This document shows positions 1 to 24,350 of a stretch of DNA of 64,000 nucleotides, one piece after another. The stretch covers positions 1 through 64,000 of the forward strand of contig QPGO01000168.1 of the NCBI GenBank assembly GCA_008632985.1, read 5' to 3'. This DNA comes from Psammoneis japonica. Its lineage: Eukaryota. The notes beneath the pieces are model-generated. The model ran no database searches, had not been told where the DNA came from, and saw only the letters and a list, made by a program, of their open reading frames with translations. Numbering within the stretch: position 1 is the stretch's first letter; the number at the start of each line of letters is the position of its first letter. Made by a program: the position numbers and the translations under genes.

Positions 1-599
1 CTCTCTGCCGGTGTTGTCAACAATGGGAAAAGAGAGCGGCATTGTGTCGTCAGTGACAGAGGGGGCCCACTTGCACTTGTGTGCAAGCATTGCTTGTGAC
101 CCAACAGAGATGATCCCTCTGTCTGTGCAGGGAATTCCAAAACTCTGCCGTTTTGGCAATCTTTTGCTGGGTTTCTTTTCCACCACTGTGAAGACAAGCC
201 ACTTGCCTCCTCTGCATGCTTGCAGTTGCCCTGCTGTTTGAGCTTTCACAAAACTCACAATGGCAAGCCAAACATTTGTGTCACTTGACAGTTTCAAAAC
301 ATGCACGCTGACCAACTTTTTGCTGCTGCCTGCTGTTAAATCTGGCCGCTGCAGCTTCGCCAATGGGGCAGTGTTGTGCTGACCTCATGCTTGATTTTTT
401 GTCAATTTCCAACTGTGGTGGATTGGCCTCATGGCAAAGATGTCTTGCCTCTCAGTGGATCGTGTCATTCCCACTTAGCCACAGGGATCTCTGTCAGGTT
501 GTGAGCAATGCTTGCACAGATGTGCAAGCAGGGCTCCTCTGCCACTGCTGACAACACACAATCCTCCCGTTTTGTTGTCGACAATGCTGGCAAAGAGAG
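1..599. repeat. Degenerate inverted repeat, arms ~1-120 and ~481-599
   Basis: Reverse complement of 1-120 (agagggatca...agcaatgcttgcacacaagtgcaag...ttgacaacaccggcagagag) aligns with 481-599 (acagggatct...agcaatgcttgcacagatgtgcaag...tcgacaatgctggcaaagagag). Confidence 0.7.
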
Positions 600-3500
600 T
601 TTGCATCGCAACCTTTGCCGCTCTGTCAATGACAATGACGACAGTGCACTGGACACTGATTCACGCCATTGCCGTTTGTTTTTGCAGCTGCTTGCATTGG
701 CGTTGGTGTGCCTTCTGTGCACATCATCAAGATCTCCTCAGGGTGTGCACCAAAGAGATCCAACACCTGCTGCCCCTGCGTGGCACAACAATGTCAAAGT
801 TTTGTTTCATCGTCTCTCACCATGGCGCCTGCTGACACCACCCATTCAAAAACGGCGTCCTCTTGGTGGGCCACTTTGTTGTCCCTGCAGGCTGCCATCT
901 CACCAACATTGGCTGAAGGCACTCCTGTCACTGCCACACCTGATGTGACTGCTCCACCATCACATGCTGCTGCAACAGCAGAGGATGCATTGGAACCTCA
1001 CAATGCACCCACAGCAGAGGATGCTGTTAAGGCTGAAGCGACTCCAGAGGCACATGCTGCGGATCCGGATGCCGGTGTGACACCTGCTCTGTTGGTTCCT
1101 GATGCATCCGCCTCGGAGCAACAGGTGCCACCAGTCATGCACCTCCATCAACACCACCACCACCACCCCCCGAGAAACCTCCTGACCCTCCTCACTCCCC
1201 ACCAACCTCTCCCAAGGCTCTCCTCACCATGTTCAAGAATGGCCTCAACTCTGCTGTTGCACAAACAGACAAGCACAAGCAAGCCCTTGACAAATCTGTG
1301 GACGAGGTTTCCAAGCTGTGGCGGGAGATCAGCGAGCTCCTTTCAGTCACGAGCAAAAGTGTTGAGCACAGATTTGACCCATGCTTCCATCTGCATTGTC
1401 CAAAGCATTGGCTGGCAACATGAGTTTGTCCACTTTGCCCAACACACCTGGTTGTCTGCGACATGTCCAAGCAACATTTTTGCTCATGGAGTGTTTCCAA
1501 AGAGTGGCAGTTGGGAAGCATGCAGACAAGCCTCATCTCACAGGACAGCGACTGGTTGTTTGCATGGGAATTGTTGCCATGCACTGTCTTGACTCAAAGT
1601 TGGAGAAAGCTTGGCTTGGCAATTTCCAACCTCCTGATGATGCAACCTTTCTGTTCATGTTTGCCATGGCTCCTTTTTCCAAGTCCTTCCCTTCAGCTCT
1701 TGGGGTGTTTTCTTCCTTGTGATCTCTCCATTGCACTTGGCATCAGAGACGATCAACCATGCATGCTGTGTGCTGTGAAACATCATTGCCAAAATTCTTT
1801 CTGCAACAAAAGACCAGGGCTTTCCACAGAGTTGTTCAGCCCATGTTTTTTGTTCTGCATTGGCAGAAAGTGGGTGGTGTTTGGCAAGAGCCACAGCCAA
1901 CTCTTCTTCACAGGGAGCACCAAGCTCATGATTTCTTTGTGTTTTCTTGCAACTCTGAGGCACTTGTCTCTGGGAGTTTCCTCCTCTTGCTGCTGTCACT
2001 TGCCCTGGTGGTTGCCTCTGTGTCTTGCACACAGCACTTCTGCATCTTTCAACAGGGAGCTGGCTCTGACAATCACTTCATTGGGCCACATTGGCCACTG
2101 ATGACAGAAAGCAACAGTTTTTGAAAAAAGATGTCTGTCTGTGTCAAGGAGTCAAACCATCCACAACCCATGCAGGCCACAGGTTTCTGGGGGCTCTCAT
2201 CTCCACACCTGTGACTGTCCCAACACTCAGCTCAATCTCATGATTTGCTGCTGCTGTGACATTCATTGTGAAGCAAAGAATGGACAGACATGCGTTTGTT
2301 GTCTCAGACCTTTTTTTTTTGTTCTGTCATGAAAGAACAAAGCACCAGCTGCAAAAGACAATCAACAGACAAAAAATTGAACACACACATGCCAACAAAA
2401 TCATTTTTTGTTCAATGATGTCAGCCAGCCAATGATTGGACCTCCACAAGAATGAGGGGCTTGCTGAGTCATTTGGCCGCCATTGTTGAAAAAGCATTTT
2501 CAACTTTTGCAGAGTTCAAGATTGTCGACATCTTTGTCTTTGTGGATTTTTCATGTGCTTTCTCCTGCTCCAATCTCTCTCTCTCTCTCTCTCTCTGCTT
2601 GCTGTCATTGAGTCAAACATTCAAGCAGCTCAACTCTTTGGCTTTGTCACACACAATGTGAGACAGAGTCATTGTGGTCATGCAGCAGACATGCAACCAC
2701 AGCCACTGTGGCAAAGAGCAGAGCAGCAAGCTTGAGAGCCTCGCCAGTGTGGTTGCTTCTGGTGCTGCTGCCAAAAAGGCAAACAATTCTTTTCCTTTGA
2801 GAAGTGCTGCTGCCAGTTGTCACTTGATGCTGTTTTTGTGATGCATCCATCTCTCTCAGTCCATGTGAAAACTTGTGTGTGTGTGTTCTGCACAATCAGC
2901 TGTGTGTCTGTCACAGAGAGACTCTCTGCATTTTTTTGCTGGCAAAACAAACACACCACAACATTTTGCTGCTGTGAGACACCAGCCACACCAGGAGAGC
3001 TCTGCCTCAATCACTGTGAAACATGTGTGCGTGTGCGCTGTGTGGGCAAAGTGCCAACAACATCACACCACCACATCATGACAAGCACATCATCTCTCAA
3101 ACATCATGCTGACAAGCAACAACAGAGTCAAAAAGCCAACAAAAAAATTGCTGAAATTTTTGTGTGTGGGAAAAACTGTGAAAAAAATGACAACAGTGAG
3201 AGAGCTCTCATCATGAGCCACCGGTGCCACACAATGAGAGAACAAGAAAAAAAGCTGCACACACACAAGTGCTGCCAAAACACTGTGAGCGTTGATTTGG
3301 CACACAAATGAAAAAAAAGAGTCTCGCCACACAGCCCTGCTGCAAAGATGACAATGGGCTCTGATGCTGTGTGGTGCAGCACAACTCTCAACAACAACAA
3401 CAAGGCCAAGAGCCACACAGACAGCATCATGTGTGTGTGCCATGAGAAAAATGAGCTGTCTTTTTTTTTTGACAAACACACACACAAGTGTGTGCCGCGC

Positions 3501-3735
3501 GTGTGATGTGTGACTTCTTGGAGAGAGAAGAGAGACACGTGCTGTTGCAGAAAAAAGCAGTGTGCAGCCATCATTGCTGGATGGTGGAGTGTGTGGGTCC
3601 TCTCTCTGGAGGAGAAGAAAACAAGGAGCTCTGCACCAAACAGAGGACCACTGCCAGCAATTCGGCTCTCTTTTTTGTTTTTTGCAGTGAGAGCGGACGG
3701 ATCGAATGACAGACAGACAGACAGAGCCGCAGTGG
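1..3735. other. TpA- and CpG-eroded degenerate repeat/pseudogene block; source element not identifiable
   Basis: By eye only three TA dinucleotides (337 TTAA, 476 TTAG, 1028 TTAA) in 3.7 kb; TG/CA excess; overlapping Tyr-free Cys/His-rich ORFs in all frames; normal TA resumes abruptly at ~3740. Confidence 0.8.
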
Positions 3736-8131: not shown

Positions 8132-8410
8132 TCACACGTAGATTTCTATGTGTGACATTTAAAAAAAATTGTCCAGACTCGCTGTTTTGCAAAGCCCCAG
8201 ACATTTTACATGACAAATTTATAGAAACAACAATGCGCCAGTTGCATTCTTCAATGTCTGAAGAATGTAACTGGCCAAGTAAAAAATGATGTGCTTCAAT
8301 CATGTGCGAGTTTGTGCGTTCGCAAAATTGCCTCATTTTCTGTTGGCGATCATTGACATTTTAATTGCCGTGTGATTTTACTGCGGAGCTCGCACGTAGA
8401 AGTCTACGGG
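8132..8410. repeat. TA-retaining island bounded by two CGTAGA-N2-TCTA(C/T)G palindromes; possible DNA-transposon end
   Basis: tcacacgtagatttctatgtgtga (8132-8155) and cgtagaagtctacg (8395-8408); the interior has normal TA content while both flanks are eroded. Confidence 0.5.
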
Positions 8411-8666
8411 CCCAATGTCACACGGATTCCCACCCACATCTGGAACGCGTCTGCTGCAGAGCCAGGAGCCAGAGCCCGCCATCAATGCCAACACGAGACA
8501 AGCAATTCTGAATGCCGAATCAAATGTCCGACACTGATGATTGCATTTTGAAAATCAGTTGGGTCACATTAATCACGAGGACACAAAAATGTTCGTGTGA
8601 TGGCATTCAACCAGTCCTTTTCAATTTTTCAAATTTTAAATTTTCATCGCGTGCATTGAGTGCAAT

Positions 8667-9105
8667 GTGCAGCTGCTGACAAGAGCCAATGCATCACGGC
8701 GACATGTTGCAGCCTTTAAATGTCACAAAGGGCGTGACAAAATAACCTTTTGTCTGCATGCATGCTGCGTTGTGAATTCACAGCGGAGTGGTTCATCGCA
8801 ACCATTGGGCAGGAGGCCAGGGGCTCGAAACCCTGAGTGGGAGTTGTCTGCAGCAACGTTGATCACTGTCGAACGCGTGAAACTCTGTGCAGTTCTGCAC
8901 GTTCCTTCGCACGTACCCACACTGTTCCGCCAAAACCGTGCAGCGTCAGCACACGTCAGCAAAGAGCCGCATGGACACGCGACACATGGGGAGGAGTGCA
9001 GTGCACAGCTGCTGACAAGAGTCAATGTATCACGGCGACGTGTTGCAGCCTTTAAATGTCACAAAGGGCGTGACAAAATAACCTTTTGTCTGCATGCACA
9101 CTGCA
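8667..9105 (+). repeat. ~100-bp direct repeat (8667-8768 and 9003-9105)
   Basis: Both copies read agctgctgacaagag.caatg.atcacggcgac.tgttgcagcctttaaatgtcacaaagggcgtgacaaaataaccttttgtctgcatgca. Confidence 0.9.
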
Positions 9106-9108
9106 TAA

Positions 9109-9941
9109 GAGCATCTTCGCCAGTGAGTCGTAAACATAAACATAAACATAGGAACACAACCTAAAAGGACAAGCGAACAGACTGCCCCGTATAAGTTTAC
9201 GATTCTGCACGCGACCATCATTTTCAGTCGATCACAATCGTAGCACATTCGGCCGATGGTTGGGCAGACGTTGAGGTAACAACCAACTCCATACACGTAT
9301 ATCCATAACTAGGAACTAACTGATGGTAGGACGGACTTGTTGAATTTTACATGACGCCATGGCGGCTTTGAACGCAGTATACGACACAAATCACAGTCTA
9401 TTCAAAGATATGTCGACGTCTATCAATAGAGAATAATTCATATTATATGTCTATGTGTTACTATGTTGTGAAAGTCATTCTACATCGCGAAAACAAGCGA
9501 AATGTTATCACACGATTTATGCCTTATTCTCTTCTGACCCCATAAACCCCCCATATGTCGGTTCTCCTCCCATATCTCGATGCGGCCGTATGTAAGTTCA
9601 TAAGATACGACAAACTGTTAATTGTTGGGCCTCTGTAAGGTCCTCTCATCAAGAAAGCGTCGATTGTCGTTTCGTCATGGTGACACGCACTTTCTACTGG
9701 ATTTCTACACCCTTTTTGTACCAGAAATTTACGATTTTCGTTTACGATTTTGGAGGTGGATCGTATCCAAGGCCTGATTTGCGATTCACTTTCATGTGAA
9801 TCGTACGTAAATTCGAAAAGGGTTATTAGCGCAAAAAATATGTTTTCGATCCACCAAAATGATGATTTTTTGTGAATCTCATTCGTATCGGAAGACGTAC
9901 GGACATGTGTTTGTGTTTACGACTCACTGGCGAAGATGCTC
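9109..9941. mobile_element. Non-autonomous PIF/Harbinger (Tourist-like) element, 833 bp
   Basis: Perfect 28-bp TIR GAGCATCTTCGCCAGTGAGTCGTAAACA (9109-9136 / 9914-9941); TAA target-site duplication (9106-9108, 9942-9944); a GAGCATCT start with TAA/TTA TSD is typical of PIF/Harbinger; no transposase ORF. Confidence 0.85.
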
Positions 9942-10413
9942 TAAGGGGCGAATCGAGGGAGGATCGAAGCCGCTGCCATTGACGCCACTCGAAACAGCTG
10001 CGCTCTAACCTTGTTTTGAAATTTTCATTGCTGTCCATTTGGGGTTAAGCAAGGGATCGAAGCCGCTCTGACGCCACTCGAAACACCTTTGCTTTGGCTC
10101 TGCTCCATTGGCGGACAGGCACCACCTCCAAAGCACGTGTGCCGTGTTCTTGGAACCAATGCTGTGACCACACAGTGCATCCATGTCGGAGTCAGATTGG
10201 TGTTTTCAAGGCCTTGAAAAAATCTTGACATTGGCAAAATGCAAACCAAAACCGGAGGGATTGAAAGGCATCACCAAAATGACAGGACAATCTTCAAAAG
10301 ATCGCTCTTCTCGACTGATGCTCTCGGCAGCAGAGCAGATGATCAAAATGTCTCCTTTAAAAAAAGACACCTGTGCATTCACACTGTTAAATTTCTGTGT
10401 CAAGCATGTGTTG

Positions 10414-11180
10414 TCAGCTGCAACTTAGTTGCCAATCCTTGTGTGCAAGCGCGCCTTCCATCTGGCCAAAGTCAGGGCGTGTGAGACTGGCTCCAAACTG
10501 ACCATCATGAGCAAGGTGATCAGCTGTTTCAAGCTTGGAAAAAGTTGCACTCATTCCCTTGGCATTTGGATTTTTTAATTTTTCCTGATGCAACTCAACC
10601 AGAATCTGCCCAACCTTGACCACACACCCCATTCTGTTTTTTGCAAAAAGCCCAACTCAAAATTCTTTCACATCCACCTTGAGACAGCATGTGTGAGAAT
10701 GACCAAGCTCCTTCACAACTGTGGCAATGGAGTTGATTGGAAAGTGAGCTGTGCTCAGTTTGTTTTAGCTGCAAAAGCCACAGTCTCCATGACAGATGCC
10801 ACAAATGCCTTCCCATCCACTGGCTCTCTGATGTTTGGATCAAACGCATGAATCTCACATCCTGATCTGACTGGTTGAACTCGTTCCTCAAAGTCAGGTT
10901 CACTGTTTGATCCCACACTGTGTGCAGTGCAGCCATTGCTGCTGCAGTGCTCATTTTTGACTCCACAAACAATCTTGGTGTTTTGGTCTGCTTGTTGCTT
11001 GTGGACTTGAGCAAGGCCACATGCCCACCTGCCTTCAACTGTGTTGAGCAACACAAGGAGATGGTGACTTTTTAAAATCCCAAAAGCAAGGAAGGCTGAA
11101 ACATGCACCAAATGGCTTTGTTCAGCAAGATTCCAAACTGCTGGCCTTCGCTGTGCATGTTTGACAACCATGCCCATCAC
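10414..11180 (-). pseudogene. Eroded Methyltransf_22 (METTL24/FkbM-like) SAM methyltransferase pseudogene
   Basis: KIVCG...CTAHSVGSNSEPDFEE...CEIHAFDP, then LKVDVKEFE and GQILVELH in successive frames; family pattern CxVYSxGS...FE...CEIHxFDP...LKxDxE...QILxExH. Confidence 0.7.
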
Positions 11181-12943
11181 TCTGCTCTGCAGTCTTTTGT
11201 GAGCACTCTCAAGCAGCCAACACAGACAGTCAGGATGTGATGGTGCATGTCTGCTGAGACAAGGTTTCTCCCGCTGACAGCGCCAGCATCATTTGGTTGC
11301 TCAAACCCTGTCTCAGCACACATTGCTGCATTCTGACTTAGAGAACTGGACCTTGCCACACCTGCTGCCTTGTCTGGCCACACAGCATTCCATGCAGTTT
11401 CTCTGATTTGCCTTCACCAAACTCCTGGGTGCACAAAAAGCACCTTTGGATCATTTCTTTGTCCTTTGTCTGTGTTGGCTGCTTCAGCCATGATTTCATT
11501 TTGCAGGTGGCATTGTTTGCCTTGAGGCATTTCAAATGTGCCAAGGCCTGTCTGGGATTTTGGTGTGTCAGAGCAAGCAAAAGCGTCCTTGTCAAAAAAT
11601 GTCAAAAGCCTTTTGTGCCCTCCTCCAAGCCAGCTCAGGTGCTGTCTCTGTCCTTCAATCTGCTGTGGCAATCATGCACTGCAAATTAAAAATGTTGTGC
11701 ATGAAAACAGATCCATGCATTTTCTCCCCACACTGCATTGAACATGTCATGAGGAAGAAATCGTCTGTGCCAAATGCATTGTGAACATGTTTTCCTCCTC
11801 TCTGTGGGCAACGGCCCTGCCCCAAAAGCTGTGCCTGCTGCTCACATCTGCACCCAATGCAAATTTTTTGAGCCCACATCAAAACAAGTGTGGACACTCC
11901 ATTCAGCCAGATTCAATGTGAACTGCCAACAGGGTGGGCTTGCTCTCCAGCTTGAACAGCGACAATTGCAACAATGCCTTTGTGGGTTTTTGAAGATCAG
12001 CAAAGCAATGCGTTGCTGTGATGCAGCATTGTGCAATGTGCTTGGTTGTTTTGAAGTTCATCATGCCAACGGCCATTGCTGCCAGAGGGCATTGAAGCAA
12101 TTGCATGTGTCATCCAAATCTGCATCTTTGCAACTTGATTTTTTCCAACAAGCAGTGCCAAAGCTGTCTCTCATTTCCACACTTCTCCAAAAAAATTTGC
12201 TCTCCATTTGTTGCTGCTTGCAGCACATCTAAAGTGCAGTTTGTTTTGCAAATGAGCTGGCGCTGCAGTGCTTGGTCACAACTGGAGTCATGGCTGCTCT
12301 CAGCGTCATTGCACAGAAATTGTGCAGAAGAAGATTGCCAAAAAAATCATTGTTGGTCTGTCCATCCATCTGTGCTTGAATGGCAACTTCTCAGGAAATC
12401 AACTGAAATGTCATCTGATCAAAAAGGTGTTGCTCTTTGCCACGCAAATCAAGGTGCCTTTGATTGGATGACATTTCAGCCAAGTTTCTGCAAAGTTGTC
12501 AGCTCCAACCACTCTCTTGCATGACACAGTGTGCATTTTCACATGATTTTGCATTTTTCCTCATGCAAAAAAATTGTTGTGATTGATGCGGCATTTTCGA
12601 GTGACTCCTGTTGCACCCACGGAGCCCGCTCTTGTCTGTGGTGACCAGCAGAGCAAATTTCCAGAGATGACACCCCCTTTTCAGCACTCTTTCCAACAGG
12701 AATCATTCGAAAATGTCGCGTGGGTCACAATTGACATTTTGCATGAGGAAAAACACAAAATCGTGCAGAAATGCGCACAATGTCATGCAAGAGAGTGATT
12801 GGAGCCAATGACTTTTCGGGAACTGAACTGAAATGCTGTCTGATTGACGGTGTTGGCCTTCACCATGTGAGTCAAAATGCCATCAATCAGATGGCATTTC
12901 AATTGATTTCCTGAGAAGTTGATGTTCGCACACGGATGGATGG

Positions 12944-13219
12944 TGACAGAAATCGAAGGCAAGTGGCAAGAATTCAAACAATGACTCCTTGCTGCTGTCT
13001 AAACAGCAGATGAGTCTCCGCTCAGAGACCGTCACAGGAGCTGAAAGACGTGCAAGTTGGCACAATCGGGCTGCTGTTGTCATTCTTGTGAGCCTTGTGG
13101 CTCGAAAGCAAACTGCATCGTGCACGAACGCATGGAACTGAAGCACACAAAACTGTGCACGGCAAACTAAACAGCGCGCGACATGTCGCACGCACCTGAA
13201 TCCTGTTCAAATCCTGCCA
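12944..13219 (-). repeat. 3' LTR of the copia element
   Basis: Aligns without gaps to 19730-20005 (~22 substitutions by hand count); preceded on the minus strand by purine tract GGGGAG (13220-13225). Confidence 0.95.
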
Positions 13220-16200
13220 CTCCCCAGTTTGCTTGAGGAGTCACAGAAACAGATTCGACTTCGGATGGAATGAAGTTCCAGAACATGAGGGGGCGGAGAA
13301 GGTCCCAGACTTGGGAGCAACCCCAATGCTTGCTGAGAATGTCAGCAGGGTTGCGGGAGCCTTCGATGAAGTGGAGCTCAAGGCAGCCAAAGGCAATTGC
13401 CTCGTGCACACGGTGGAACGACAGTGCGGTGTGTCGCTTGTGCAACTTGGAGTGCGGGATGGTGGCACTGTCTACAACCAACTTGTTGTCACTGAACATG
13501 CAACTGATGTCACGGATCGGGACGCCAAGGCAGCGCAGGGTGATGCGCAGGTCGACAATTTGCTCGACACAAGTCCTTGCGGCAACAAATTCAGACCCGC
13601 AGGTCACAGTCTCCATGGTGGCTTGCTTCTTAGAGAACCAATCAGCCGGGAATTTGTTGAGGAAGTGGAGCATTCCCATGACAGAGCGTCCGGTGAGCAT
13701 GCAATGGTGCAAGTTTGCATCGACGCAGTGGGTGGCAGTGACGAACTTGCCAAGGGGCGGTGGAGCATCCTTTGGGATCATCTCTTCTGCTTCGCCACAC
13801 ACGGAATGCATCCATTCATGGGCTGGAGCAGGGAGATCCAAACAGTCGGGCTCTTCTGTGCGAACGCGGAGAGTGCCATGTCGCATCTTGGAGAGGCACC
13901 CACAGACACGTTTGGCACGATCCAAGTGGCCTTGACGGGGCACAGCTCGGAAGCTAGAGAGTGACATGACGGCCGTGGCAATGTCAATTCGACCAAGGGA
14001 CACTGCCCATTGGAGTGAACCAACAAGAGACTGGAACTGGTGAATGCCATCGGGCCCCAGCAGTTCGGAAGTGTCCAGTTCGGGGTGGTCACCCTTCTCC
14101 AGAGGTGACAAGGCATTGGTGGCAGGTTTCTCCCCAAACAGTCGTGTGCAGCTGTCGACCATGTGCTCGATGTACTTGCGCGGAGACAGGCACAAGGTGC
14201 CGTCAGGATCCCGGGAAAAGTCACAGCCCAGATGGAACTCAATCGGTCCTGCACCCTTGAGCTTGAACTTGCACTTTTCCGTGAGAGCATCGACGAAAGA
14301 TTGAGGGTCCTTCATGGCAATGGCGAGGTCATCCACACAAACGGCAATGCATTCGCAGTGGTCGCCGTTCCCGCGCATCCAAATGTCGGGTTCGGCGCTG
14401 CAGGGGAAGAAACCTTCAGCTCGCAGGCAGTCGGCAAAGCACTCGTGCCAGCGGAGGCCGGAGCTGCGCAGTCCACACAGGGCCTTGTGGATGACAAGGA
14501 TGTGGCCTTCGAGTTTGCCAAATTCGGGTCCGGCTGCAATGTAGAGCTTCTCCTTGGTGGTGGCTTCAAGGCAGGCATTGCCAATGTCGGTGGCCCATGT
14601 CTCCAACTCGTTGAGTTCGGCCAGGAAAATCATCAGCCGAAGGCCACGGAGGGAGACTGCTCCGGAGCAGACACTGTCGATGGGTACGTCCGTGAGGTGC
14701 CCATCGGCTGTGAGTCGTGCCTTGTGGCAACCGTCGTGTTTCACGTCGTGCACCAGGTGCACTCGGATCTTCTTGTGTCCCGCAGGAGGAGTGGAAGACT
14801 CGGAGGGCCCGCAGTCATGGAAGACTTTGTATTCCTTGAGTTGGTCCATCTCGAGATTAGTTGCGTCTCCCCATTTGTGGTTGCCGTTGCGTTCGTCTAG
14901 TGACATGGCGTGTTTGCAGTTCCGGGGAACTTTGCATCCGCACTTGCAGCGAGGTGCAGTGCGGAAGGAGTGAAGCTTGGCTTGGTTGGCCATGCGGAAT
15001 GGCTTCTTCTGGCGCCTTGCGATGGTGCGGAACCGCTTCCAGCCATCAGTGTCGAGAAGTCTGTTCTCTCGTGCATAGATGGCGCAGGTGACAGGGTTGT
15101 CCATGGCGATGATGGCAAGAGGCTCGGACGTGATCTTCCCACTTTCCCATTCAAGCATGATGTTGTAGCTTGAGCCTTTCCAGGTTGGGTCATGAGGCTT
15201 CAGAGGTCCTTCGTGTGACACAATGCGTCGAAATTTCCAAACAGCAGTGTCTTCATCTTCTTGCTCAATGTGATTCATGATGTCGTTGCAGGCCAGGACT
15301 TCCTCGCATTCGTCGTTGTTGACAGAGCAGACGAACTCAGTGAGCTCGGGATTGCCGTTCACTTTCCATTCGTGGTCTTCGACGGCCTTGACGATGCGAG
15401 CTCTGTGGCGTTGTCCATCCTCTTGTGGCTGCATGAGGAAGGTGCGTCCGATGATGTCTTGCGGATCAAAAACTGGCATCTTGGGTGTCCTGATCTCCCC
15501 ATCAGGTGAATCAATGGGGTTGTCATCATGGCGAGATTTGATGATGGGTTCAGGTGGCTCCCCATCAGGAGGATCAAGATGCAGGTTTCAAACGGCAGGA
15601 TCAGTGGCAGCGGATCGTACGTTGGACCAGCAGAGGATCTTCTGAGTCTCATCAGAGAGAATCTTGAAGGTCATCTGGTGGCCGACGTGCTCAGCAATGC
15701 CAACAAAGCGTCCACACAACTCACGGGATTCGGACGGCCAATCGGAGTCATCGAGGTGGAAGTGCACGGGTTCCCACCAGTGAAAGCGAAGCAATGGGCT
15801 GATGTCCGGGGTGGAGCCAGTGAGAGTCTCGAGGGGCGTGCGCCAGTGGAGACGTGGGGACGCTGTGTGGTTGAGCATGAAGCACACGTGCATGAGCGCC
15901 AGCAGCCATGTGTGGGCAGGCAAACCGAAACAATCCATGACAGTGTTCGCCATGCGCTTCACGGTCTGGCATCAACGTTTGGCAAAGTTTTGGTGTTGCT
16001 GGTGAGGCTCACTTTGCCAGCTGGAGACAAAGAGGGCTCGCAGGATCCCGAGCACCTTGTTGCTGATCTCAACTTGAGCACGGTCGCCGATGAGTTTGGA
16101 TGGAGCACCACGCTCATGGATCTGATCCTCGAGTGTGTTGACAAACTCTTTGTCCGTTTTGGTGCCGTAGACGTCAGTGATGGTAGACTCGGTGCCAACA

Positions 16201-18799
16201 AACAGCTGGGCGCTGGTGCAACCAGAGTCGACGGCTGGGGTGTCAGCACAAACGGTGTCAGTGGCGACAGGCTCGTTGCGGCGGTGCACATTAAGGGTGG
16301 GGTTGGGCGATTTGTGGGCCTTCCCAAGGTGTGCACCGGTGGGCATGCGGGCGCACTGCGTGGTGCAGTCGAAAGTGCGACGAACCGCATCGGCAGGTTG
16401 GAAGCCAAAGTGAGGCCGAAGAGACTCGAAGGGGGGGTCCTTGGGCTGCACAGTGTGCTCCGGGGGCGGAACGTTGTCGTCCTTGGGGTCAATCGCGTGT
16501 GGATGACACTCGTAGAACACGTCGTCGTTCGGAATGAGATGGTCATCGAGGGCGGACACGTGATCGGCAGACAAGGAGGCAGACATGATGGTCTTGTTGA
16601 CAACGACACGATGACGGCAGTTGCCGCATTCGTCAAACAGGTTGGCAGTGGGATCGTCCTGCAGGTCAGAGATCACGTCACACCACTGGTCGTCGTCAGT
16701 GACAGAGTGATCGAGGACGGAAGGATCCCACCATTCGGCGTCAGTGCAAGGTCGCATGGCAACATGAGGCAGGCCGCCCTTGATGTCAATTGGGATGACA
16801 CAGCCATCAGGGGTGGCAATGCATTGCAAGCCGTTGGGCACCTTGACAGAGCGATCATTGACATCCTGTTTGTGCCATTCGAGCTGGCCGCAGGAATGAA
16901 TGGTCTTGCCCTTTCCCATGCATGCATGCTGATGGAGGATGGCGATGACGGGACCACGCTGTGTCTCAATGACGGCACCAGCAGTGACAACAGGTGTGTC
17001 CACCAATTGATGTCGTCAATGCCCTGAACGTCGACTTGGCGAGAGGTGTGTGCAATGACGCGAACATCATCGCCAGCAATGCCGCTGTTGGCCCCACGAT
17101 CAACTGGAGCACCAGTGCATGTGGAGCGATGAGCGGAGGCAGAGCAAATGACATTGTGGTCATTGATGCGGCGGCAAGTGTGGCCGTTAAGTTCTGTGTC
17201 ATCGGTGGGAGCGGGTGAGGTAGAGGGAGTGGCGGATGGCCCCGGTCGACCAGCGTTGGGGGCTTGGTTAGGAGACAACAGGCGTTGCAGATCACCGGGT
17301 GGCAGTGGCTTGCACTTGGTGAGGTGCGCCAGGATGGGATTGTCTGAAGTGGCATCCACATTTGGAGCGGGGTCACCAGAGTCAGCAGGAGTCATGTTGG
17401 ACAAGTTGACATCACCGTCACTCCCAAGGTGTTGGTCATGAAGGTTGGCCGTAATGGACTCATGGCAGTTGCTGGCTCGCGGGTTACGGGGAGGCGGATG
17501 AGAATGCTCAAGGATGATCGCCTTGGAGGAATGGGGCAACGAATCCCAAATCCGTTGGTGGTCGGGAGGGAGACATTTCCATTGGTCACCGGCAAGGCTG
17601 GGACCGCGGGTGCAGGCAGCATCAGCCTGAAGGACGTCAATGTTGATGTCACAGAACACATCATCGGACGGTTCCTCGGAGCAGACGTTGTGTGCGCATG
17701 TGGCGCGTCGGGGAGCTCGAGGTGTCGTCTTGGGTTGAAATGTGCTGTCGCACTGAGCCGCCGCGGAGAGGAGCAAGCCACAACATTGATCGCATGTGAG
17801 GCTCTTGCCACTCTGCGTGCGATGCTGATCAGCTTGGTTCTTGACAGCACGGAGTTCCTCGACAGGATGTGCAGCATTCTCGAGCATGATGCGCTTCTGT
17901 CCTTCAGAGAAGTGGTCACTGGCCGGGATGAGTGCCTCACACTTGCGCAACTGATCTTGCCAATGAAGGATGAACCCGTGGGTCGGACCTTTCCAAGCAC
18001 CATCACCAAGACGTGCGGTGGTGAGGCACGTGAGCAAGGTGGAGGACTCGATGGATGCACGGGTGGAGGCAAGCGCACACTTGGACAAGGCGTGGCAGAC
18101 GGTCTGGGCATCAGAAGACCCCACATTTTCGCGAATGAGAGCCTTGCCCTTGTCGGTGAGAAGGATGCATTCGAAGATGGTGAACATGCACTTTTGCTGT
18201 TCAGCAAAGAGCAGTTTGTCTTCGGGGCTGGTCAGTTTGTACGACGAGTCTAGAATGCACTCGATGTCTTGGGCACGGGCTTGTGCCACAAGTGAGGTGT
18301 GCCAAGTGTGCCACTGCTTGTCAGATTTGAGAGCCGTGAAAGCGGTGGGGTCATGCTTGATGCCTCACTTGAATTCTCGCACCGGGTCGCGTGCCTTGGT
18401 CGGGTTGGTGACATGCGGAGGTGCGAGGGGCGAGCTGCCGATGGACACAGAAGACATGCAGTCGGGGCTGAGGCGGTGGGCAAGGAACTCCTCATGCGCG
18501 AACAACGAGGAGTCATTGGCAACGTCAAGACCTTCATGAGCTTTGACAATGTACAGACTGGTTGGAGCTGCCAACATGTTCTCATGGCCGCGGGGCAAAG
18601 GGATCACATCAGTGCCACCACCGCACTCAAGTGAGTCGATTTGGGACGGTGTGAACGTGAACAGCTCTTGATGCAAGTCCGCACCGTCGTGGGTCAAAGC
18701 CAAACGAAGAGGGCTCCCAGCACCTTGGGCAAGCACGGTTCCAACAACGTGCTCGAAACCATCGGTTTGTTGCTGAAGAGTGAGAACCATGGCAGACAA
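13220..18799 (-). pseudogene. Copia gag-pol pseudogene with stops, frameshifts and systematic Tyr->Cys/His changes
   Basis: Gag FK*GIKHDP...AQARAQD; protease VDRGANSGIAG; integrase VATDTVCADTPAVD...SEPHQQHQN; RT HKARL, DIGNACLEA, KALCGLRSSG, CVDDL; RNaseH CVDANLHHCMLTGRS, ETVTCGSEFVAAR, NPADILSKHW. Confidence 0.93.
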
Positions 18800-19729
18800 A
18801 AGTGGTGTCAGGACAAGCGATTCTTGTTGGGACGCGAAGGTGGACTTGAAACTTGGGTGAGAATAGACTTGACTTGAAGTGGACTTGACTTGAAATCTTG
18901 AACTACCTTAAAATCAGAAGTCGCCGGTCTGTGCTGTCCCGTTCGTTGTCAAGTGCTAAATTTCCTGTCCGGTCCGCAGAGTTGTGCCGGCACGTCCAAA
19001 CTCGCAGCTGGCGGCACTTTGGGTTGCTTGCAAGCGGAGCAGCGGGTTGCAAACCCCTGCAGGTGAGCTGACCAGAGGTGGACAAGACCCCCGAACCGTT
19101 CTTGTTTTGTGTCGGTTGGATTTCCCGATCAGGCTGGCCAGTTGACGCAGGCGTCAGGCACTGTGGACGAATGAACAAACGCGGGAAAAACACCCTTGCC
19201 CCAACGCAGGCTGCAATCACGGCCACTTGCTCTCACAGTCGTCCTCGTGGACCTGGTGGAACTGTGGAGCACCAGCAGTCTGGGGCAGATCAGGTGCAAT
19301 GGACTCGGTGTGCTTGCAGAGTGGCAGCAAAGCCGCAGTCCAAAGAGTGGTTGCAAGTTCTTGGCCGTGAAGATGTGTGCACACTCATGTCTTCAGCGAC
19401 AAAGATCCTTGAATGTGTGGGGTTCTTGACCGTTAACCGTTGAATGGGCACATCAAGGGATGAGGATCAAGGATGGACTTGGACATGACCGTTGAATGCA
19501 TGTCTTCAGTGACAAAAGGCAGTGTGATCAATCCAGACACACAGCAGTGAGGAGACTTGACGGTGACGTTAAATTCCTGCCGATGCCTGGCATTGAATGC
19601 GCGCAGACTTGCCGATGTACATGCAGAATGCACACGGAGGTCCGCGCAGAATTGAAACAGCGTCGTCGGTAAATCAACGACGATGATGGCGGTTGCTCAA
19701 TGGGTTGACAATGAGCAAGACTGTCAATC

Positions 19730-20005
19730 TGACAGAAATTGAAGGCAAATGGCAAGAAGTCAAACAATGACTCCTTGCTGCTGTCTAAACAGCAGATGAG
19801 TCTCCGCTCAGAGACCGTCACAGGAGCCGAAAGACGTGCAAGTCGGCACAATCGGGCAACTGTTGTTGTTCTTGTGAGCCTTGTGGCTCGAAAGCAAACT
19901 GCATCGCACGCGAACGCGCGGAACTAAAGCACACAAAACTGTGCGCGGTAAACTAAATTGCGCGCGACATGTCGCGCGCACCTAAATCCTGTTCAAATCC
20001 TGTCA
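19730..20005 (-). repeat. 5' LTR of the copia element
   Basis: TGACAG...CTGTCA terminal inverted repeats; contains a 22-bp perfect palindrome at 19959-19980. Confidence 0.95.
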
Positions 20006-20836
20006 GATGGACAGACTGATGACAATTGTTTTCAGTGCTCTCCTGCACAATTTCTGCGTGGTGACTCTCAGGACCCGAATGATTCCTGTTGTTTTTGTCA
20101 AATCATTTGACCAAGGGGCTGATGGTGTCACATGCCTCTGCTGGTGAGGTCTTGGGTGCATCCACACTCTGTTGGCCGCAACGGCAACATGCCAGCGTGT
20201 GGGTGAGTTTGTGAGGTGCAAAGAACATGGCTCCTCAAATCAAAATTTTGAGAAGAAATCACTGAACAGTGTCCATCTGCAGCTGGGGACAAGAGAGAAT
20301 GCCACACCCTGATTCCTCCTCAATTGTCAACATTGACCACATCAGAACAGCACACTCACCATGGTCGACGGCTCTTTTTTTTTTTTCACACAGAAAGATC
20401 AGAAAACGCGGATGACGGACGAGCAAAACGCAAAAATATGTAGTCGAGTTATTCTAGCTTGGTGCACAACCCAACAACACGAGATTGTCAAATGCTTCGG
20501 ATTAAAGATGATATATCATTATTCAGAAATATATAGATGATAAATTTTTGTACTACAGTAACAAGATTCAAATTCGTAAGTGTATTTTAATACATATTAC
20601 GGATTAAATGCTTTTTATTCGATGTACAACATACTTAAAATCTGATATAAATCGTTTTTATCTATAATCTAATATTACAGACCATTTAAACATATAAAAT
20701 AAATACTTGTTAAAGATGAATAATGTTATTGGATCTAGCACTTTTTTCAAATTTCAAAAACGCAGATGCACCACAAGACTCCTCCCCCAAACCACACACA
20801 ACGCGAAAAACACCACAGCGATCAACAGGTGTGACG

Positions 20837-23628
20837 ATGAAGGTATCGTTCGGTGCCGTCTGCATCCTGCTAGGGTGGATGGCAGGCTATGGTCTCGCCG
20901 ATGGCGTAGACGCGGCAGCACCATCCTCGGTGTCCGGTCTGGAGGACACCATGACTTCAGCAGAAGAAATCAAAACCAAATCAAGTCTTCGAGGCAAAAC
21001 CATAACTGACTTTCGATCAAATGAAATGATTGATAATTCGGATCAGGAGCACCGAAGGGCTCAAATCGAGGCAGACAAGTTTTGGCGTGGACATCTTAAC
21101 GGGATCTCAGGACCGCCCACCTCATCGCCGACTCCTGCTCCTAAGAAGAAGCTCCATCCCGTCCTACCGAACATTTTCAATAAGAGAGGCTCCAAAAGGA
21201 CAAGAGGAAAGAAGGGACGAGGAGGTAGAGGAGGAAAGCGCAAAGGAAAGCGCAAAAAGAAGCGTAAAGGAAGGCGCGGCAAGAGGAGCGAAGGAGGAAG
21301 GCGTGGCAAGAGGAGCAAAGGCAGTGGCGAGAGCGGAAAGAGCAGTAGCAGGTCTGTTCCCATTCGAGATTTTACCAGAGAGTCCAATCGCAGAAAAGAA
21401 AGAGGAAAGGGTCGAGAGCTTGCTTTCAAGCCAAAGGTCGTTATTGATCTTGGATCTGCGGTTGAACACGAGTCCGTTAATTCCGAGCTCCCGAAACTGA
21501 AGGCCGAAGGAGACAAGTCCGTCGGCGTTTCCACTACTCCCGAAACAAGCTCAGAGACAAAGCTTGATATTGAATCTGCCTTAGAAGCAAGTAACTCACA
21601 AGAGAAGTTGGACAAGAGTATGTTACTTCCGAGCTCTCGAAGCTGAAGGCTGAAGGAGACAAGTCCGTCGAAGTTTTCACGTCTTCCGAAAGCAACTCCG
21701 GCACAAAGCTTGGTCTTGAATCTGAGTTAGAAGCAAGTAACTCACAGGAGAAGGATGAACAAGAGCTGGTTACTGTCGAGCTCTCGAAATTGAAGGCTGA
21801 AGGCGACAAGTCTGTCGAAGTTTCCCCGCTTGCCCAAACAAGCTCAGAGACGATTCTTGAGCCGGCGAAACTCCCTTGGATAACTTCTGAGGAGGCTACG
21901 TCGTCTCCCCTTCCTATATACTGGATCAACCTGGAGCAATCGACAGAGCGACGTGCCTTGATGGAGGAAAGGTTTTCAAATCTAACTTCTTTTGGACACG
22001 AGTTCAAGGCAACTCGCATTCCAGCGGTGAATCAGGAACAAGTTCGGAAACCGTTAGCCACTGGAAGATTCAAGGCAAAAGGGGTTAAATTTGTGCAACC
22101 GAGCGCAGAGACGTTGGACTCGCAGAAGCACCTTCAGAAAGAGTACACAGATATTGAAGCAGCATCTCTTTTGTCACACCTGAATGCAATCTTGACAGCA
22201 TATAGAGCTGGACATGAGTACGCTTTAATTATGGAAGACGATGCTCTCATAAACTCATACTTTCTCTCAAATTGGAAAGATTATATGGAGCTTGCTCCTT
22301 CGGACTGGAACGTTCTCCAGTGGTCTACAAGCAATGAGGCAGTGCAGATGGAGACCAAGAATATGGCTAAGGATCCGTGGGTAGCTTGGGTCCCAGACTA
22401 CTTTGGGTGCACTTGTTACATGATACGTCGTCAAGGAATGCACGAGATACTTAGACATTCTTTCTCTGAAGATATTCATGGAGAGCCATTGTGGCATGTC
22501 AGTGAGTCCGAGTTGGTGGTGGCAGACGAAGTCGTCTACTACCTCGCAAAGCAATCCTACACTTCGACATTCCCGTGGATTGGGACAGGCGCAATGGTCA
22601 GCACTCATGATGATGGACATCAAACATTCGCAATCGATCTTGCAAAACCGATGACACGGCCAGAAAGGGTCTTAGTTGTGACGAGTAGTCGCATAAAAGA
22701 TGAAGCCTCTATCTCCGCAGAATTGAAAAGGTTGACAATGGATGCCGAATCCTTATCCAAGTGGCATCCAACTTCTACGTGGATTGTCAATGCAGTCGTG
22801 GTAAATGAAGATCTTAAAGCAGCATTTGTTGACAAGGCATCCGGGCTGCCCTCTAGCATCCACCTTCGCATCCGTGTCAATGACAAGACGTTCAACAAAT
22901 TTGCACTAATTGAGAATGCTCTCAAAGAAGAATTCATTCTGTACGACTACGTTCTCTTCAAGGACAATGACATGCGATTGGCAGGTTTCCCGTGGAACAC
23001 ATTCATGGAGCGCAAAGGCGACACGATTGTCTCTGGTCCTCTCCATGAAGCTGTCGACGAGTCCCTTATACGACATGATCTTATACCAAAGAGACAGTGG
23101 TATCAGTTCCACGAAGCGCAGTTGTGGAGGAAAGACAAGGTTCCAGAATTTGTGGAAATTTCCCCCATTCCAACTATGTATATCGAGCAGGCCTTTGTGT
23201 TGATGAGGGGAGACTTTGCTCACTGGTACTTTGATCAAATGTTAACGCCGTGGTTTGTGGAGCAGCCAACGGATTGGGGCATTGACAAGATGTGGTGCGG
23301 GGCTGCTAAATCCTTTCGGCCGGAATTACGTGCCTGTGAGATTGTTCCACTTGTCGCTGTACATGAGGATACGAGGCAAATTGCAGTTGGAGAAGAGTAT
23401 TTGATACAAGGTCGATCTGTGATTCAGCGTTTCCGGGAAAATGAGCGTTTCCGTGATTGGCTGGACGCCATCATTGGTTGGGAAACGTTTATTGAGGGCA
23501 ACGCCGACCTCTATGATGTTCAATCTCGATGCAGACGCCTTTTAAAGTCCGATATAGCCAATCTGACAAAGTGCGCTGAGCTTGTCGTCGACGGACAGAT
23601 AGACATGCAGGATCTTGTCTTTACGTAA
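20837..23628 (+). CDS. Secreted glycosyltransferase family 25-like protein with a basic K/R/G segment, 49-aa repeats and an uncharacterised C-terminal domain; one 1-nt frameshift near 21612
   Basis: Signal peptide MKVSFGAVCILLGWMAGYGLA; GT25 motifs IYWINLEQSTERR, ASLLSHLNAI, YALIMEDDA, CYMIRRQG. Repeat unit 1 is 146 nt against 147 nt for unit 2, which locates the frameshift. Confidence 0.8.
21485..21860 (+). repeat. ~2.5 copies of a 147-bp coding repeat (ELxKLKAEGDKSV...)
   Basis: Units start gagctc at 21485, 21631 and 21778. Confidence 0.9.
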
Positions 23629-24350
23629 TTTGAAGCAGGATCCACCTCTGGGGATACACTTATGCCAGTAGCTGTAATGTTGAATGAAGATAATTTGTAA
23701 CTGGTTATAAACATGGTTTGAAGAAAGCTTTCTTTTGATTTCTCTTTTCTCACATGGAGTCAGAATGCTCAGAGAGCAGGACAGGGCTTTTGCTTGTGTG
23801 CCACCACGAAGTACCCACACGGAGCGACCAACATCAATGTTCCGTGTTGCCGTGTTGACTGATGCCGGAGTTATGCACAGAGCTGTCGATAAATTTCTCA
23901 TTACCTTTGCAACAAAGGTGCTTTGCGAAAAGTTAGTTCCATTTTCAACATCTGACATCATGAACAACACCTGCCTTGGACACACTCGCAACACATTGGC
24001 AAATAAATAAGAGCTGCACACCGATGATGCTCCTCTTTCATGTGTGTATTTTTTGCTCTTGCGGGGTCAAAATCTTCTCTACGGTACTCTCTACTCTCTC
24101 TACTTACTCTCTACTTAGCTCTAACTAGAGCTTTAGAGTGTAGTGGCAGCTAATTGTCTTCCGAAACATCGGAGTCGAATGGGTCATGCGGGATTCAAGA
24201 TTCGCGACTCGACGGACGAAGGGAAATTGACCCTTTCGAAACATCCAGAAAATTGACAACAGCAACAAAAAACCCACTCATGTGCTGAGCTCTCCCATCA
24301 GCTGAACGACATTCTCATCTGAGGGAAGAACCAAAATGATGAAGCAGTTG

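Follow-up and report, generated by a model that had tools for sequence, protein, structure and literature searches.

The closest described system is the hypermutation of integrated viral DNA in Bigelowiella natans. Of the 231 de novo mutations reported for two viral regions integrated in that genome, 230 are A->G or T->C; these AT->GC changes are all said to fall on TpA, at about 1000 times the background rate and in some lines only (Mettrop et al., bioRxiv 10.64898/2026.01.13.699255). This organism, in a single preprint of 2026, is so far the only one in which TpA-only hypermutation of foreign DNA has been demonstrated. Literature searches on TpA-directed or RIP-like erosion in diatoms and on A-to-G changes at TpA in retrotransposons returned fungal RIP papers and, on TA-destroying erosion, only this preprint.

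TadA acts natively on the U-A-C-G loop of tRNA-Arg, the substrates of eukaryotic ADAT2/3 mostly carry a purine 3' of A34, and ADAR prefers a 3' G. Amphioxus BjADAT2 is reported to be the one natural ADAT2 with demonstrated DNA editing; its favoured contexts are GAA when adenine is the target and TCG when it is cytosine (PMC10354150). ADAR also favours a 5' U, and RIP in ascomycete fungi converts CpA to TpA, which yields TA-rich DNA (bioRxiv 10.64898/2026.01.13.699255).

All of our evidence comes from a single window, the whole 64-kb stretch of DNA that was analysed. This locus shares with B. natans, as described in the preprint, the restriction to A:T->G:C changes at TpA, with TpG or CpA as the product depending on the strand, and their location in foreign-derived segments; for the window, action on both strands, confinement to foreign or mobile-derived segments and conversion of TA to TG/CA were each tested and found. 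Long-term depletion of TpA with a gain of CpA and TpG, enriched in reverse-transcriptase and DDE frames, is likewise common to both; the process appears episodic in B. natans and may be so here. The lineage is probably a different one, as judged from a diatom-type DUF6824 gene, and about 67% of the window is eroded, whereas 124 clusters in 94.7 Mb are reported for B. natans. The targets here are transposons whose erosion is near completion (rho TA 0.01-0.1), in contrast to the value of 0.45 given for the NCLDV region of B. natans; there, integrated NCLDV and virophage DNA carries de novo mutations, while here the footprint is historical only. The main text of the preprint treats neither the +1/+2 context nor CpG.

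Eroded and spared segments of the window

The window was cut into eroded and normal blocks by TA density alone, a procedure that is circular for the depletion but not for its context, and the normal-block baseline is mostly coding. The eroded part consists of eight blocks (42.8 kb) with rho TA of 0.00-0.17, six of them at 0.01-0.08, and rho TG/CA of 1.57-1.85; the eight normal blocks (21.2 kb) have rho TA of 0.36-0.77, with the five largest at 0.51-0.59. When pooled, rho TA is 0.06 in eroded versus 0.56 in normal blocks and rho CA/TG is 1.69 versus 1.21. A transition-only, dinucleotide-specific erosion of transposons with sharp borders and destroyed coding capacity is also the hallmark of RIP, but chemistry and direction are opposite, as TA is destroyed here and CA/TG is made, and the eroded block between the MITE and the Copia element is single-copy at present (depth 35-75 in run X1, the single-copy level). 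The features are collected in Table 1.

Table 1. Position and character of the segments and elements discussed in the text.
Feature	Position	Strand	Remarks
Eroded block	1..3700		3 TAs, 3/3 YTAR; CpG rho 0.23
Same eroded host block as 9945..12943, left continuation	8401..9108		From segmentation; cut off by MITE
Direct repeat, 111 bp	8658-8768 / 8994-9104
Young un-eroded MITE, 833 bp	9109..9941		27-bp perfect terminal inverted repeats 9109-9135 / 9915-9941; target-site duplication TAA 9106-9108 / 9942-9944
Old near-single-copy eroded block	9945..12943		11/11 TAs YTAR; left edge is MITE end, right edge is Copia LTR
Weak Methyltransf_22 remnant	10758-11288	-	E 4.6e-5
Inverted duplication, 250 bp	12362-12613 / 12694-12943
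Copia LTR retrotransposon	12944..20005	-	RVT_2 5e-23; LTRs 12944-13219 and 19730-20005, 92% identical
Same eroded host block, right continuation	20006..20436		Zero TA
Normal control block	20437..24200		TA-dense spacer; GT25 glycosyltransferase gene 21595-23628, plus strand
Eroded block, 11 kb	24201..35200		27 TAs, 18 YTAR; tandem repeat of about 605 bp x 4 at 27385-29805
Normal control block	35201..43300		Lig_chan fragment; DUF6824 gene 38870-39274, minus strand; three tandem DUF7467 genes 39850-42800, plus strand
Eroded block	43301..46800		From segmentation
Normal control block	46801..49900		DRL-type oxidoreductase gene 48134-49699, minus strand
Eroded block, most CpG-poor	49901..53600		CpG rho 0.16; from segmentation
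Eroded block retaining CpG	54401..63800		CpG rho 0.60; coding frame 57942-60305, plus strand

The frame in the last eroded block is real, though unnamed, coding sequence and has no Tyr among its 788 residues. For the DRL-type oxidoreductase, the Atlas search returned bacterial-type clusters only, a cluster look-up for relatives of GT25 yielded no names, and an Rfam search of the window gave no match.

Block edges are sharp to tens of bases. Dense TA starts abruptly at 20437, where a spacer with 39 TAs in 283 bp, many of them ATAT, adjoins the eroded block. The MITE, which from the rule for its target-site duplication we take to be PIF/Harbinger-like, lies inside an eroded block, is untouched by erosion and provides an internal control; it is high-copy in run X1 and has 58 TAs, only five of them YTAR.

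Perhaps no dedicated enzyme is involved and TpA is error-prone in compacted, poorly repaired chromatin, through misincorporation or damage at the flexible TA step, so that changes build up in old unconstrained DNA. The eroded blocks are indeed the non-genic, CpG-decayed parts of the window and the young MITE is un-eroded, but several observations make this explanation quite unlikely. The TA-dense spacer is itself non-coding and directly adjoins an eroded block, TA loss in the Copia element outruns CpG decay (rho about 0.1 and about 0.8 respectively, with LTRs 92% identical), and the WA signature of pol eta is absent. In addition, the 1000-fold rise in B. natans is local and confined to some of the lines (bioRxiv 10.64898/2026.01.13.699255). 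Pol eta-type WA mutagenesis, which would deplete AA as well and which the preliminary description would have favoured given an elevated loss of AA, is argued against by the lack of such a loss (symmetrised AA/TT rho 1.26 in eroded versus 1.17 in normal blocks).

CpG rho ranges from 0.16 to 0.86 over the eight eroded blocks (0.49 when pooled). Deamination of 5-methylcytosine runs in the same blocks and feeds the same TG/CA products; however, CpG decay is slower than TA loss in the Copia element and occurs elsewhere without TA loss, as in the un-eroded metagenome relative L001 (rho CpG 0.19, rho TA 0.59). The CpG loss is nearly context-free, with observed/expected values of 0.38-0.55 over the ten NCGN classes, and therefore represents a separate process in these blocks. 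A single enzyme for both TA->TG and TCG->TTG, as BjADAT2 might suggest, was dropped as a candidate, as the CpG loss is without robust 5'-T bias.

Sequence context of the surviving TAs

A preliminary description of this DNA had stated that every TA in 1-3735 and 9950-13200 belongs to a YTAR tetramer. A recount agrees for 16 of 16, three in the first stretch (337 TTAA, 476 TTAG and 1028 TTAA) and 13 in the second (eight TTAA/TTAG, five CTAA and no CTAG). By chance, this would arise with a probability of 2e-12 if YTAR were as frequent as in normal blocks, and of 1.6e-4 even at its share among all eroded-block survivors. YTAR accounts for 88 of the 152 surviving TAs in eroded blocks (58%) versus 164 of 875 (19%) in normal blocks (Fisher p 5e-22), the over-representation that had been looked for, and for 13%, 9% and 21% of TAs in an un-eroded Copia relative, the young MITE and an intergenic spacer, respectively. 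The RTAA/TTAY survivors described between 24.2 and 34.3 kb are also in place (24673 ATAA, 24696 GTAA, 26856 GTAA, 31495 GTAA and 32008 ATAA); in the whole block 24201-35200, eight survivors contain one TAY and one is RTAY, the remainder being YTAR. Uniform depletion of NTAN words is rejected under either baseline (LRT 165 or 145, 3 df; p 2e-35).

Survival, taken as the count per kb in eroded blocks divided by that in normal blocks, falls from 0.34 for TTAA through 0.25 for CTAA/TTAG, 0.15 for CTAG, 0.11 for GTAA/TTAC, 0.08 for GTAC, 0.07 for CTAC/GTAG, 0.03 for ATAA/TTAT and 0.02 for ATAG/CTAT to 0.008 for ATAC/GTAT and 0 for ATAT (none observed, 137 expected). YTAR is itself depleted 3- to 7-fold in eroded blocks, and the context effect is a gradient rather than a switch.

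An additive two-strand model, in which the hazard of an A varies with its 3' neighbour (A 0.53, G 0.95, C 1.57, T 3.12), fits all ten NTAN classes with a residual deviance of 4.2 on 6 df. The proposed VTAY target is not borne out as a separate rule, because targeting of both strands already yields the apparent 'V', for which there is no extra preference. YTAR is what remains because these tetramers are cold on both strands. The +2 base matters as well, T being hot and A cold (TAAA 0.24 versus TAAT 1.37; TACA 1.09 versus TACT 2.63). As precursors of the hot words are plentiful in the sequence, the absence of these words does not stem from a lack of input.

The +1 order T > C > G > A is the same in young-looking and old-looking blocks and also under a mutation-balance model. 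The size of the preference is model-dependent: in time-integrated hazard, TAT exceeds TAC about 2-fold, a ratio that rises to as much as 4- to 7-fold under mutation balance, and TAT exceeds TAA by 6-fold to about 50-fold. The hazard of TAA is alike in young-looking and old-looking blocks (0.49 versus 0.56), and survivors may therefore in part be regenerated TAs at equilibrium.

The survivors thus carry the fingerprint that had been described, a strong and reproducible contrast of hot TAY and cold YTAR that reaches at least two bases 3' of the A. The proposal that it suggests an enzyme stands in so far as such a pattern is far more easily produced by a sequence-reading enzyme than by generic decay; the term 'deaminase' is more conditional, because in sequence an A->G change at T-A-Y looks the same as a T->C change at R-T-A of the opposite strand. 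The suggested resemblance to the UAC preference of TadA applies only in part. An A->I change by TadA or ADAT2-ADAT3 would give A->G, and the 5' T (U33) and 3' pyrimidine of the bacterial tRNA-Arg loop are shared, the 5' T being obligatory and the 3' pyrimidine preferred here, but T beats C and the hot triplet is TAT, not TAC. From BjADAT2, as reported, the footprint differs by its hot spot at TAT rather than GAA and by a CpG loss without TCG bias. The context matches no characterised adenine deaminase with which it was compared (TadA with UAC, ADAR with 3' G, BjADAT2 with GAA).

Alternatively, the lesion could be centred on T. An enzyme such as a TET/JBP-type dioxygenase would modify T in R-T-A to 5-hydroxymethyl- or 5-formyl-uracil, which mispairs with G and leads to T->C, and the context would become a 5' preference of A > G > C > T. 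The double-stranded outcome is identical, so that every context count fits equally on the other strand, and dinoflagellates and kinetoplastids are known to carry modified thymine at TpA. We consider this unlikely, as there is no evidence of such a base or enzyme here and the context of telomeric J, T-T-A, is the coldest in the window. The B. natans preprint favours adenine deamination, likewise without proof (bioRxiv 10.64898/2026.01.13.699255).

Conserved codons, strands and copies of the Copia element

The Copia element, which is intermediate in erosion, shows the TA erosion to be mutational, to act on DNA and to occur at least partly after integration. Its pol frame was aligned with the 120 homologues listed, and 346 of 395 conserved columns are identical; the direction of change is read from such conserved protein columns and describes a historical footprint in which no new mutations were observed. 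The 22 columns of conserved Tyr hold 16 Cys, four Tyr, one Trp and one Phe, and the reverse transcriptase motif YVDD has become CVDD. Tyr makes up 0.6% of the frame versus a homologue median of 4.4%, and Cys 4.5% versus 1.1%. Because conserved Tyr codons of the polymerase became Cys, the erosion is mutational and not compositional.

Native composition, selected avoidance of TA or an artefact of sequencing or base-calling would need no mutation process at all. TA is somewhat under-represented in most genomes, and even the normal blocks of this window reach a rho TA of only 0.56. Such explanations are nevertheless scarcely credible and already largely refuted by the conversion of catalytic Tyr codons, where Tyr is kept in all of the 120 homologues listed, by a 1226-bp contig of a public run (possibly from the same sample and not independent) that equals 9915-11140 with 0 differences, and by the LTR pair of the Copia element, which differs at exactly TA versus TG/CA dinucleotides.

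Both DNA strands are hit about equally, TG and CA counts being about equal per strand in every eroded block. The two LTRs differ at three TA sites (TA versus TG/CA) and by 19 transitions versus three transversions; two CTAA sites are among the places where they differ. As LTR differences at TA sites cannot predate integration, some of the TA change is post-integration.

Editing before integration, whether of transposon RNA by an ADAR-like A-to-I activity or of cDNA, would let copies arrive already mutated. Erosion edges coincide with element ends, and the 16 Tyr changes in Copia pol are all to Cys, which equals sense-strand A->G; with the fitted hazards, the five of these codons that follow a purine would all escape a change to His with a probability of only about 0.04. 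However, Cys is predicted by the context model at the other 11 of the 16 codons, which follow a pyrimidine, and in the frame 57942-60305 the Tyr of the homologue faces His five times and Cys four times (counted on a 29%-identity alignment). The Copia interior has similar numbers of sense and antisense products (TGY 295 versus RCA 325 on the plus strand), as has every block; TA sites differ between the LTRs, and the single-copy host block is eroded as well. Retroelement editing by ADAR and APOBEC also consists of clustered transitions that disable mobile elements, but APOBEC gives C->T, not A->G, and in contrast to ADAR the footprint in this window is symmetric between the strands, arose at least in part after integration and is cold at 3' G, the preferred neighbour of ADAR (0.95 versus 3.12 for T). 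Editing before integration is therefore very unlikely.

Across paralogue sets within the window, 172 columns show transitions and 41 show transversions, with a concentration in the TA/TG/CA/CG network. Discordant CA/TG sites between paralogues have R_Y flanks in 9 of 21 cases versus 25% expected, which is suggestive of some TA origin but not decisive. In the pair 7209-7683 / 23102-23576, at 70% identity too diverged to polarise, TA in the normal copy faces TG/CA in the other eight times and the reverse is found four times.

Run X1 contributed 14,289 contigs on 9000-21000, with by far the highest depth over the Copia element and summed changes of 606 transitions and 90 transversions; contigs that join 12927 to 20006 represent the Copia-less form. 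Among the best 40 of about 700 variant places over this region, 14 best-supported ones lie over the Copia element where other copies differ; eight are CpG-type and none TA-type, and at seven of the eight essentially all depth differs. As no TA-type place is among these 14, the majority of the family may already share the TG state, by parallel saturation or through amplification of an eroded master copy. A protein search for related loci found one relative (64% identity) in 15 candidate stretches and no close copies among them, which leaves the element without a nucleotide-level outgroup.

A putative context-reading enzyme and its possible meaning for genome defence

We regard it as probable that the footprint reflects TpA-specific A:T->G:C hypermutation of transposon-derived segments by a context-reading enzyme, in a process of the B. 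natans type. Discrete transposon-derived segments have undergone TA->TG and, from the other strand, TA->CA; genes, intergenic spacers and the recently inserted MITE were spared. The rate depends on the bases 3' of the hit A, in the order T > C > G > A at +1, and is raised by a T and lowered by an A at +2. The putative enzyme would read about four bases of one strand, T-A-Y-T best, and would most likely be a polynucleotide adenine deaminase acting on DNA, the resulting inosine being read as G. No deaminase-fold Pfam match was found among the 72 window frames scanned. As CpG decay marks the same blocks, the enzyme may be directed to silenced or foreign DNA. It possibly works in bursts or soon after insertion and not at a clock-like pace; the only hints of this, both indirect, are that the MITE is untouched and that young-looking and old-looking blocks have an equal TAA hazard. 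The same kind of process could underlie the de novo TpA-only hypermutation of B. natans.

The comparison suggests that the process is present in a second, unrelated lineage and has been the chief agent of transposon decay there, one that converts every Tyr codon and does away with TAA and TAG stops. For annotation, eroded blocks yield spurious long open reading frames in each of the six frames and mask transposons in homology searches. The newly measured quantitative motif T-A-[T>C>G>A]-[T hot, A cold], additive on both strands, is one that candidate enzymes must reproduce, and it narrows the search for the enzyme by arguing against ADAR-like, pol-eta-like and BjADAT2-like specificities. More tentatively, a silencing-coupled defence by a DNA adenine deaminase, a 'reverse RIP' (TA->TG/CA) with a fixed footprint of T-A-T > T-A-C > T-A-G > T-A-A and +2 T, might exist in at least two distant algal lineages, a rhizarian and a diatom-type stramenopile. 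If so, this would be an old and widespread genome defence of eukaryotes, the enzyme of which would be identifiable from its sequence preference.

Block structure and content of the eroded DNA

Two kinds of DNA alternate along the window in 1-kb dinucleotide profiles. Two-state segmentation on TA counts separated eight eroded blocks (42.8 kb in total), where TA has been rewritten to TG or CA, from eight normal blocks (21.2 kb). The observed/expected ratio (rho) of TA was 0.00-0.17 over the eight eroded blocks and 0.01-0.08 in six of them, with rho(CG) of 0.16-0.86 and rho(TG/CA) of 1.57-1.85. Normal blocks had rho(TA) of 0.36-0.77, and the five largest showed 0.51-0.59 with rho(CG) of about 0.9-1.0. 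Edges of eroded blocks are sharp to tens of bases: 19984-20436 is TA-free, and the following 283 bp carry 39 TAs. The sole N of the window, at 24369, lies just within an eroded block.

Genes of the normal blocks encode a GT25 glycosyltransferase, a DRL-type oxidoreductase, a ligand-gated channel fragment, a DUF6824 protein and three DUF7467 proteins. All 30 Atlas hits of the DUF6824 gene were DUF6824 clusters, with Bacillariophyta the commonest known phylum in the three shown; a diatom or something closely related is thus the probable host. Eroded sequence other than a Copia retrotransposon is unrecognisable.

Features of the window, with rho(TA) and rho(CpG) for the age series
Feature	Position	Strand	Setting	Properties	rho(TA)	rho(CpG)
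Eroded block	1-3700
Eroded block	7501-8100
Eroded block	8401-9000
Eroded block	10101-20400
Eroded block	24201-35200
Eroded block	43301-46800
Eroded block	49901-53600
Eroded block	54401-63800
Three tandem DUF7467-domain genes	39850-42800	same strand	normal	E 6e-10, 6e-6, 3e-9
Young MITE, 833 bp	9109-9941		un-eroded	perfect 27-bp terminal inverted repeats; TAA target duplication (9106-9944 overall)	~0.8	~1.3
Copia retrotransposon	12944-20005	minus	eroded	RVT_2 5e-23; LTRs 92% identical	~0.1	~0.8
Old host block	~8401-9108 + 9945-12943 + 20006-20436		eroded		~0.03	~0.3
Second eroded frame	57942-60305		eroded	788 residues
Foldback	12362-12943			two arms of ~250 bp, ~70% alike
Tandem repeat	27385-29805		eroded	~605 bp, four copies, 87-90% identical
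Inverted paralogous coding-like pair	7209-7683 / 23102-23576			70% identical
Stretch with variant contigs	11193-11960

Overlapping long open frames occur on both strands of all eroded blocks (e.g. 13167-18907, 27886-32362 and 56513-63612) because TAA and TAG have been destroyed. The window holds 210 frames of at least 100 residues, 66 of which reach at least 150 residues in eroded DNA, and such frames are traps for gene callers. The tandem repeat copies differ mainly between CA and TG (15 sites), CG and TG (8) and CG and CA (14), with TA/TG at 4. The foldback, directly left of the Copia LTR, has 75 differences in 250 aligned bases between its arms (58 transitions and 17 transversions, 10 CA-vs-TG doubles included). 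The left copy of the inverted pair carries 6 TAs and extends into TA-free 7501-8100; its partner carries 16.

Contigs matching the window are available from a public sequencing run, possibly of the same sample as the assembly. The only ones over 11193-11960 differ at 9/373 and 9/320 bases, largely at TG/CA/CG dinucleotides, and a neighbouring contig (9915-11140) is identical to the window. Another haplotype, another strain or a close paralogue could account for these variants; should they be alleles, the eroded blocks would be unusually polymorphic.

Runs of at least four TG or CA units number 15 in the 42.8 kb of eroded DNA and 2 in the 21.2 kb of normal DNA, and runs of at least three TA units 0 and 4, respectively. 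AC/GT microsatellites, reported to be unusually common in some rhizarian genomes, Bigelowiella natans included (PMC13746701), could arise where AT/TA microsatellites undergo TA erosion.

Mutational origin and sequence context

TA depletion here is mutational, not compositional. The Copia pol frame, aligned with the best 120 of 1083 homologues at E <= 1e-10, agrees with 346/395 conserved columns, and its reverse transcriptase catalytic motif reads CVDD. At 22 conserved Tyr columns it carries Cys 16 times, Tyr four times, and Trp and Phe once each. Tyr makes up 0.6% of its residues vs a median of 4.4% in these best 120 homologues, and Cys 4.5% vs 1.1%; among the same 120, no comparable Tyr loss was seen save one partial case. 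Tyr codons are TAY by definition, and since a pyrimidine precedes 11/16 of the converted codons, the context rule described below predicts Cys rather than His. The second eroded frame contains no Tyr and lacks a Pfam match; its single database homologue (29% identity, E 1e-42) marks it as a real coding frame, and it probably encodes the protein of a mobile element not described before. By hand count in that 29%-identity alignment, the homologue's Tyr positions correspond to His in five cases and Cys in four.

Erosion works at the DNA level and hits both strands, and at least part of it followed integration. On either strand, TG and CA counts balance in every block and in the Copia interior. 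The LTRs of a pair are identical at integration; those of Copia have since acquired 22 differences, of which 19 are transitions, including three with TA vs TG/CA (two CTAA, one GTAA), eight with CG vs TG/CA and two TG-vs-CA doubles. Four paralogue sets within the window show 172 transition vs 41 transversion columns, and 78 of their variable dinucleotide sites fall in the TA/TG/CA/CG network. The 14,289 public-run contigs on 9000-21000, nearly all over Copia, depart from the window by a transition at 606 places and by a transversion at 90, summed over the listed kinds of difference.

Among the 152 TAs left in eroded blocks, 88 are YTAR (TTAA, TTAG, CTAA or CTAG), 54 contain one TAY and 10 contain two, compared with 164, 466 and 245 of the 875 in normal blocks (YTAR share, Fisher p 5e-22). 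YTAR accounts for 7/53 TAs in an un-eroded metagenomic Copia relative, 5/58 in the un-eroded MITE and 8/39 in an un-eroded intergenic spacer. The preliminary description had held every TA of 1-3735 and 9950-13200 to be YTAR, and TTAA, TTAG or CTAA was indeed found in 3/3 and 13/13; the survivors it placed in 24.2-34.3 kb are also correct, and the start of its region at 9950 is set by the MITE, a normal island. Survival, as density per kb in eroded relative to normal blocks, is highest for TTAA (0.34), followed by classes at 0.25, 0.15, 0.11, 0.08, 0.07, 0.03, 0.02 and 0.008, and is lowest for ATAT, at 0.

An additive two-strand model, in which the hazard of each strand's A depends only on its 3' neighbour, accounts for all ten NTAN classes (residual deviance 4.2 on 6 df), with fitted hazards of 0.53 for A, 0.95 for G, 1.57 for C and 3.12 for T. 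Uniform loss is rejected (LRT 165 on 3 df), as the proposed context dependence had implied, and because the 3' neighbour suffices, the V of the suggested VTAY target reflects a target on the opposite strand and not a preference of its own. The +2 base has an effect as well (hazards of TAAA 0.24 vs TAAT 1.37, TAGA 0.64 vs TAGT 1.45, and TACA 1.09 vs TACT 2.63), TATA half-sites number 0 in eroded and 102 in normal blocks, and no effect of the +3 and +4 bases was found. The hazard order was unchanged with a mononucleotide baseline, T > C > G > A was found in the CpG-retaining (young-looking) blocks and again in the CpG-poor (old-looking) ones, and a mutation-balance model returned the same order with a TAT:TAA ratio raised to 27-54. 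The rank order is thus robust, and the size of the preference is model-dependent.

CpG loss and the timing of erosion

CpG loss is a process separate from TA loss. Observed/expected values span 0.38-0.55 over the ten NCGN classes; TCG is not favoured, and no flank effect holds across baselines. In a Copia relative from elsewhere, rho(CpG) is 0.19 yet rho(TA) is 0.59.

The MITE is TA-rich (58 TAs, ATAT included), high-copy in the public run and itself un-eroded. This young element, inserted in an old eroded block, shows that TA poverty is not inherent to the elements still mobile here. A Copia-less form is also seen in public-run contigs joining 12927 to 20006; the old host block is in three pieces, split by the MITE and Copia insertions. 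Based on the age series of MITE, Copia and host block, TA loss is faster than CpG decay. The TAA hazard does not rise with age (0.56 in old-looking and 0.49 in young-looking blocks), so that a burst, whether early or episodic, or else a back-mutation equilibrium is a better fit than clock-like loss at a steady rate. Of the 14 rows with the best support in which other Copia copies differ from this one, eight are CpG-type and none TA-type, and in seven of those eight essentially all contig depth differs from the Copia here. Given the lack of TA-type rows among these 14, the majority of the family may share the TG state, through parallel saturation or an amplified eroded master copy.

Candidate enzymes and the B. 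natans system

The sequence fingerprint favours an enzyme reading T-A-Y-(T). Likeness to the UAC preference of TadA had been suggested; the enzyme-like character stands, and the hot spot is TAT, not TAC. ADAR favours a 3' G, whereas here a 3' G is cold. BjADAT2 is reported to prefer GAA and TCG on DNA (PMC10354150), unlike the TAT hot spot observed here. On these three comparisons, the fingerprint equals no characterised enzyme. Alternatively, the same sequence outcome may stem from a lesion centred on the T of the other strand.

Polymerase eta was considered separately: raised AA->AG change would have pointed to it, and AA/TT is not depleted (1.26 in eroded vs 1.17 in normal blocks), which argues against it.

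The B. natans preprint aside, TA-destroying erosion was not found for diatoms or elsewhere in the literature searched. According to its main text, two integrated viral regions mutated about 1000x as fast as the rest of the genome in a mutation-accumulation experiment, with A->G or T->C in 230/231 changes, all AT->GC mutations on TpA and hypermutation restricted to some lines; an ADAT2-like DNA adenine deaminase was proposed (10.64898/2026.01.13.699255). B. natans has 124 clusters in 94.7 Mb (10.64898/2026.01.13.699255), whereas about two-thirds of the window here is eroded. This window also differs in carrying a diatom-type domain family, and on these two grounds B. natans is an improbable source of it. 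As the main text of that preprint contains no trinucleotide, flanking-base or CpG analysis, the context measured here is new relative to it (10.64898/2026.01.13.699255). The window is best filed with this recently described TpA hypermutation, with transposons as targets and probably in a different lineage.
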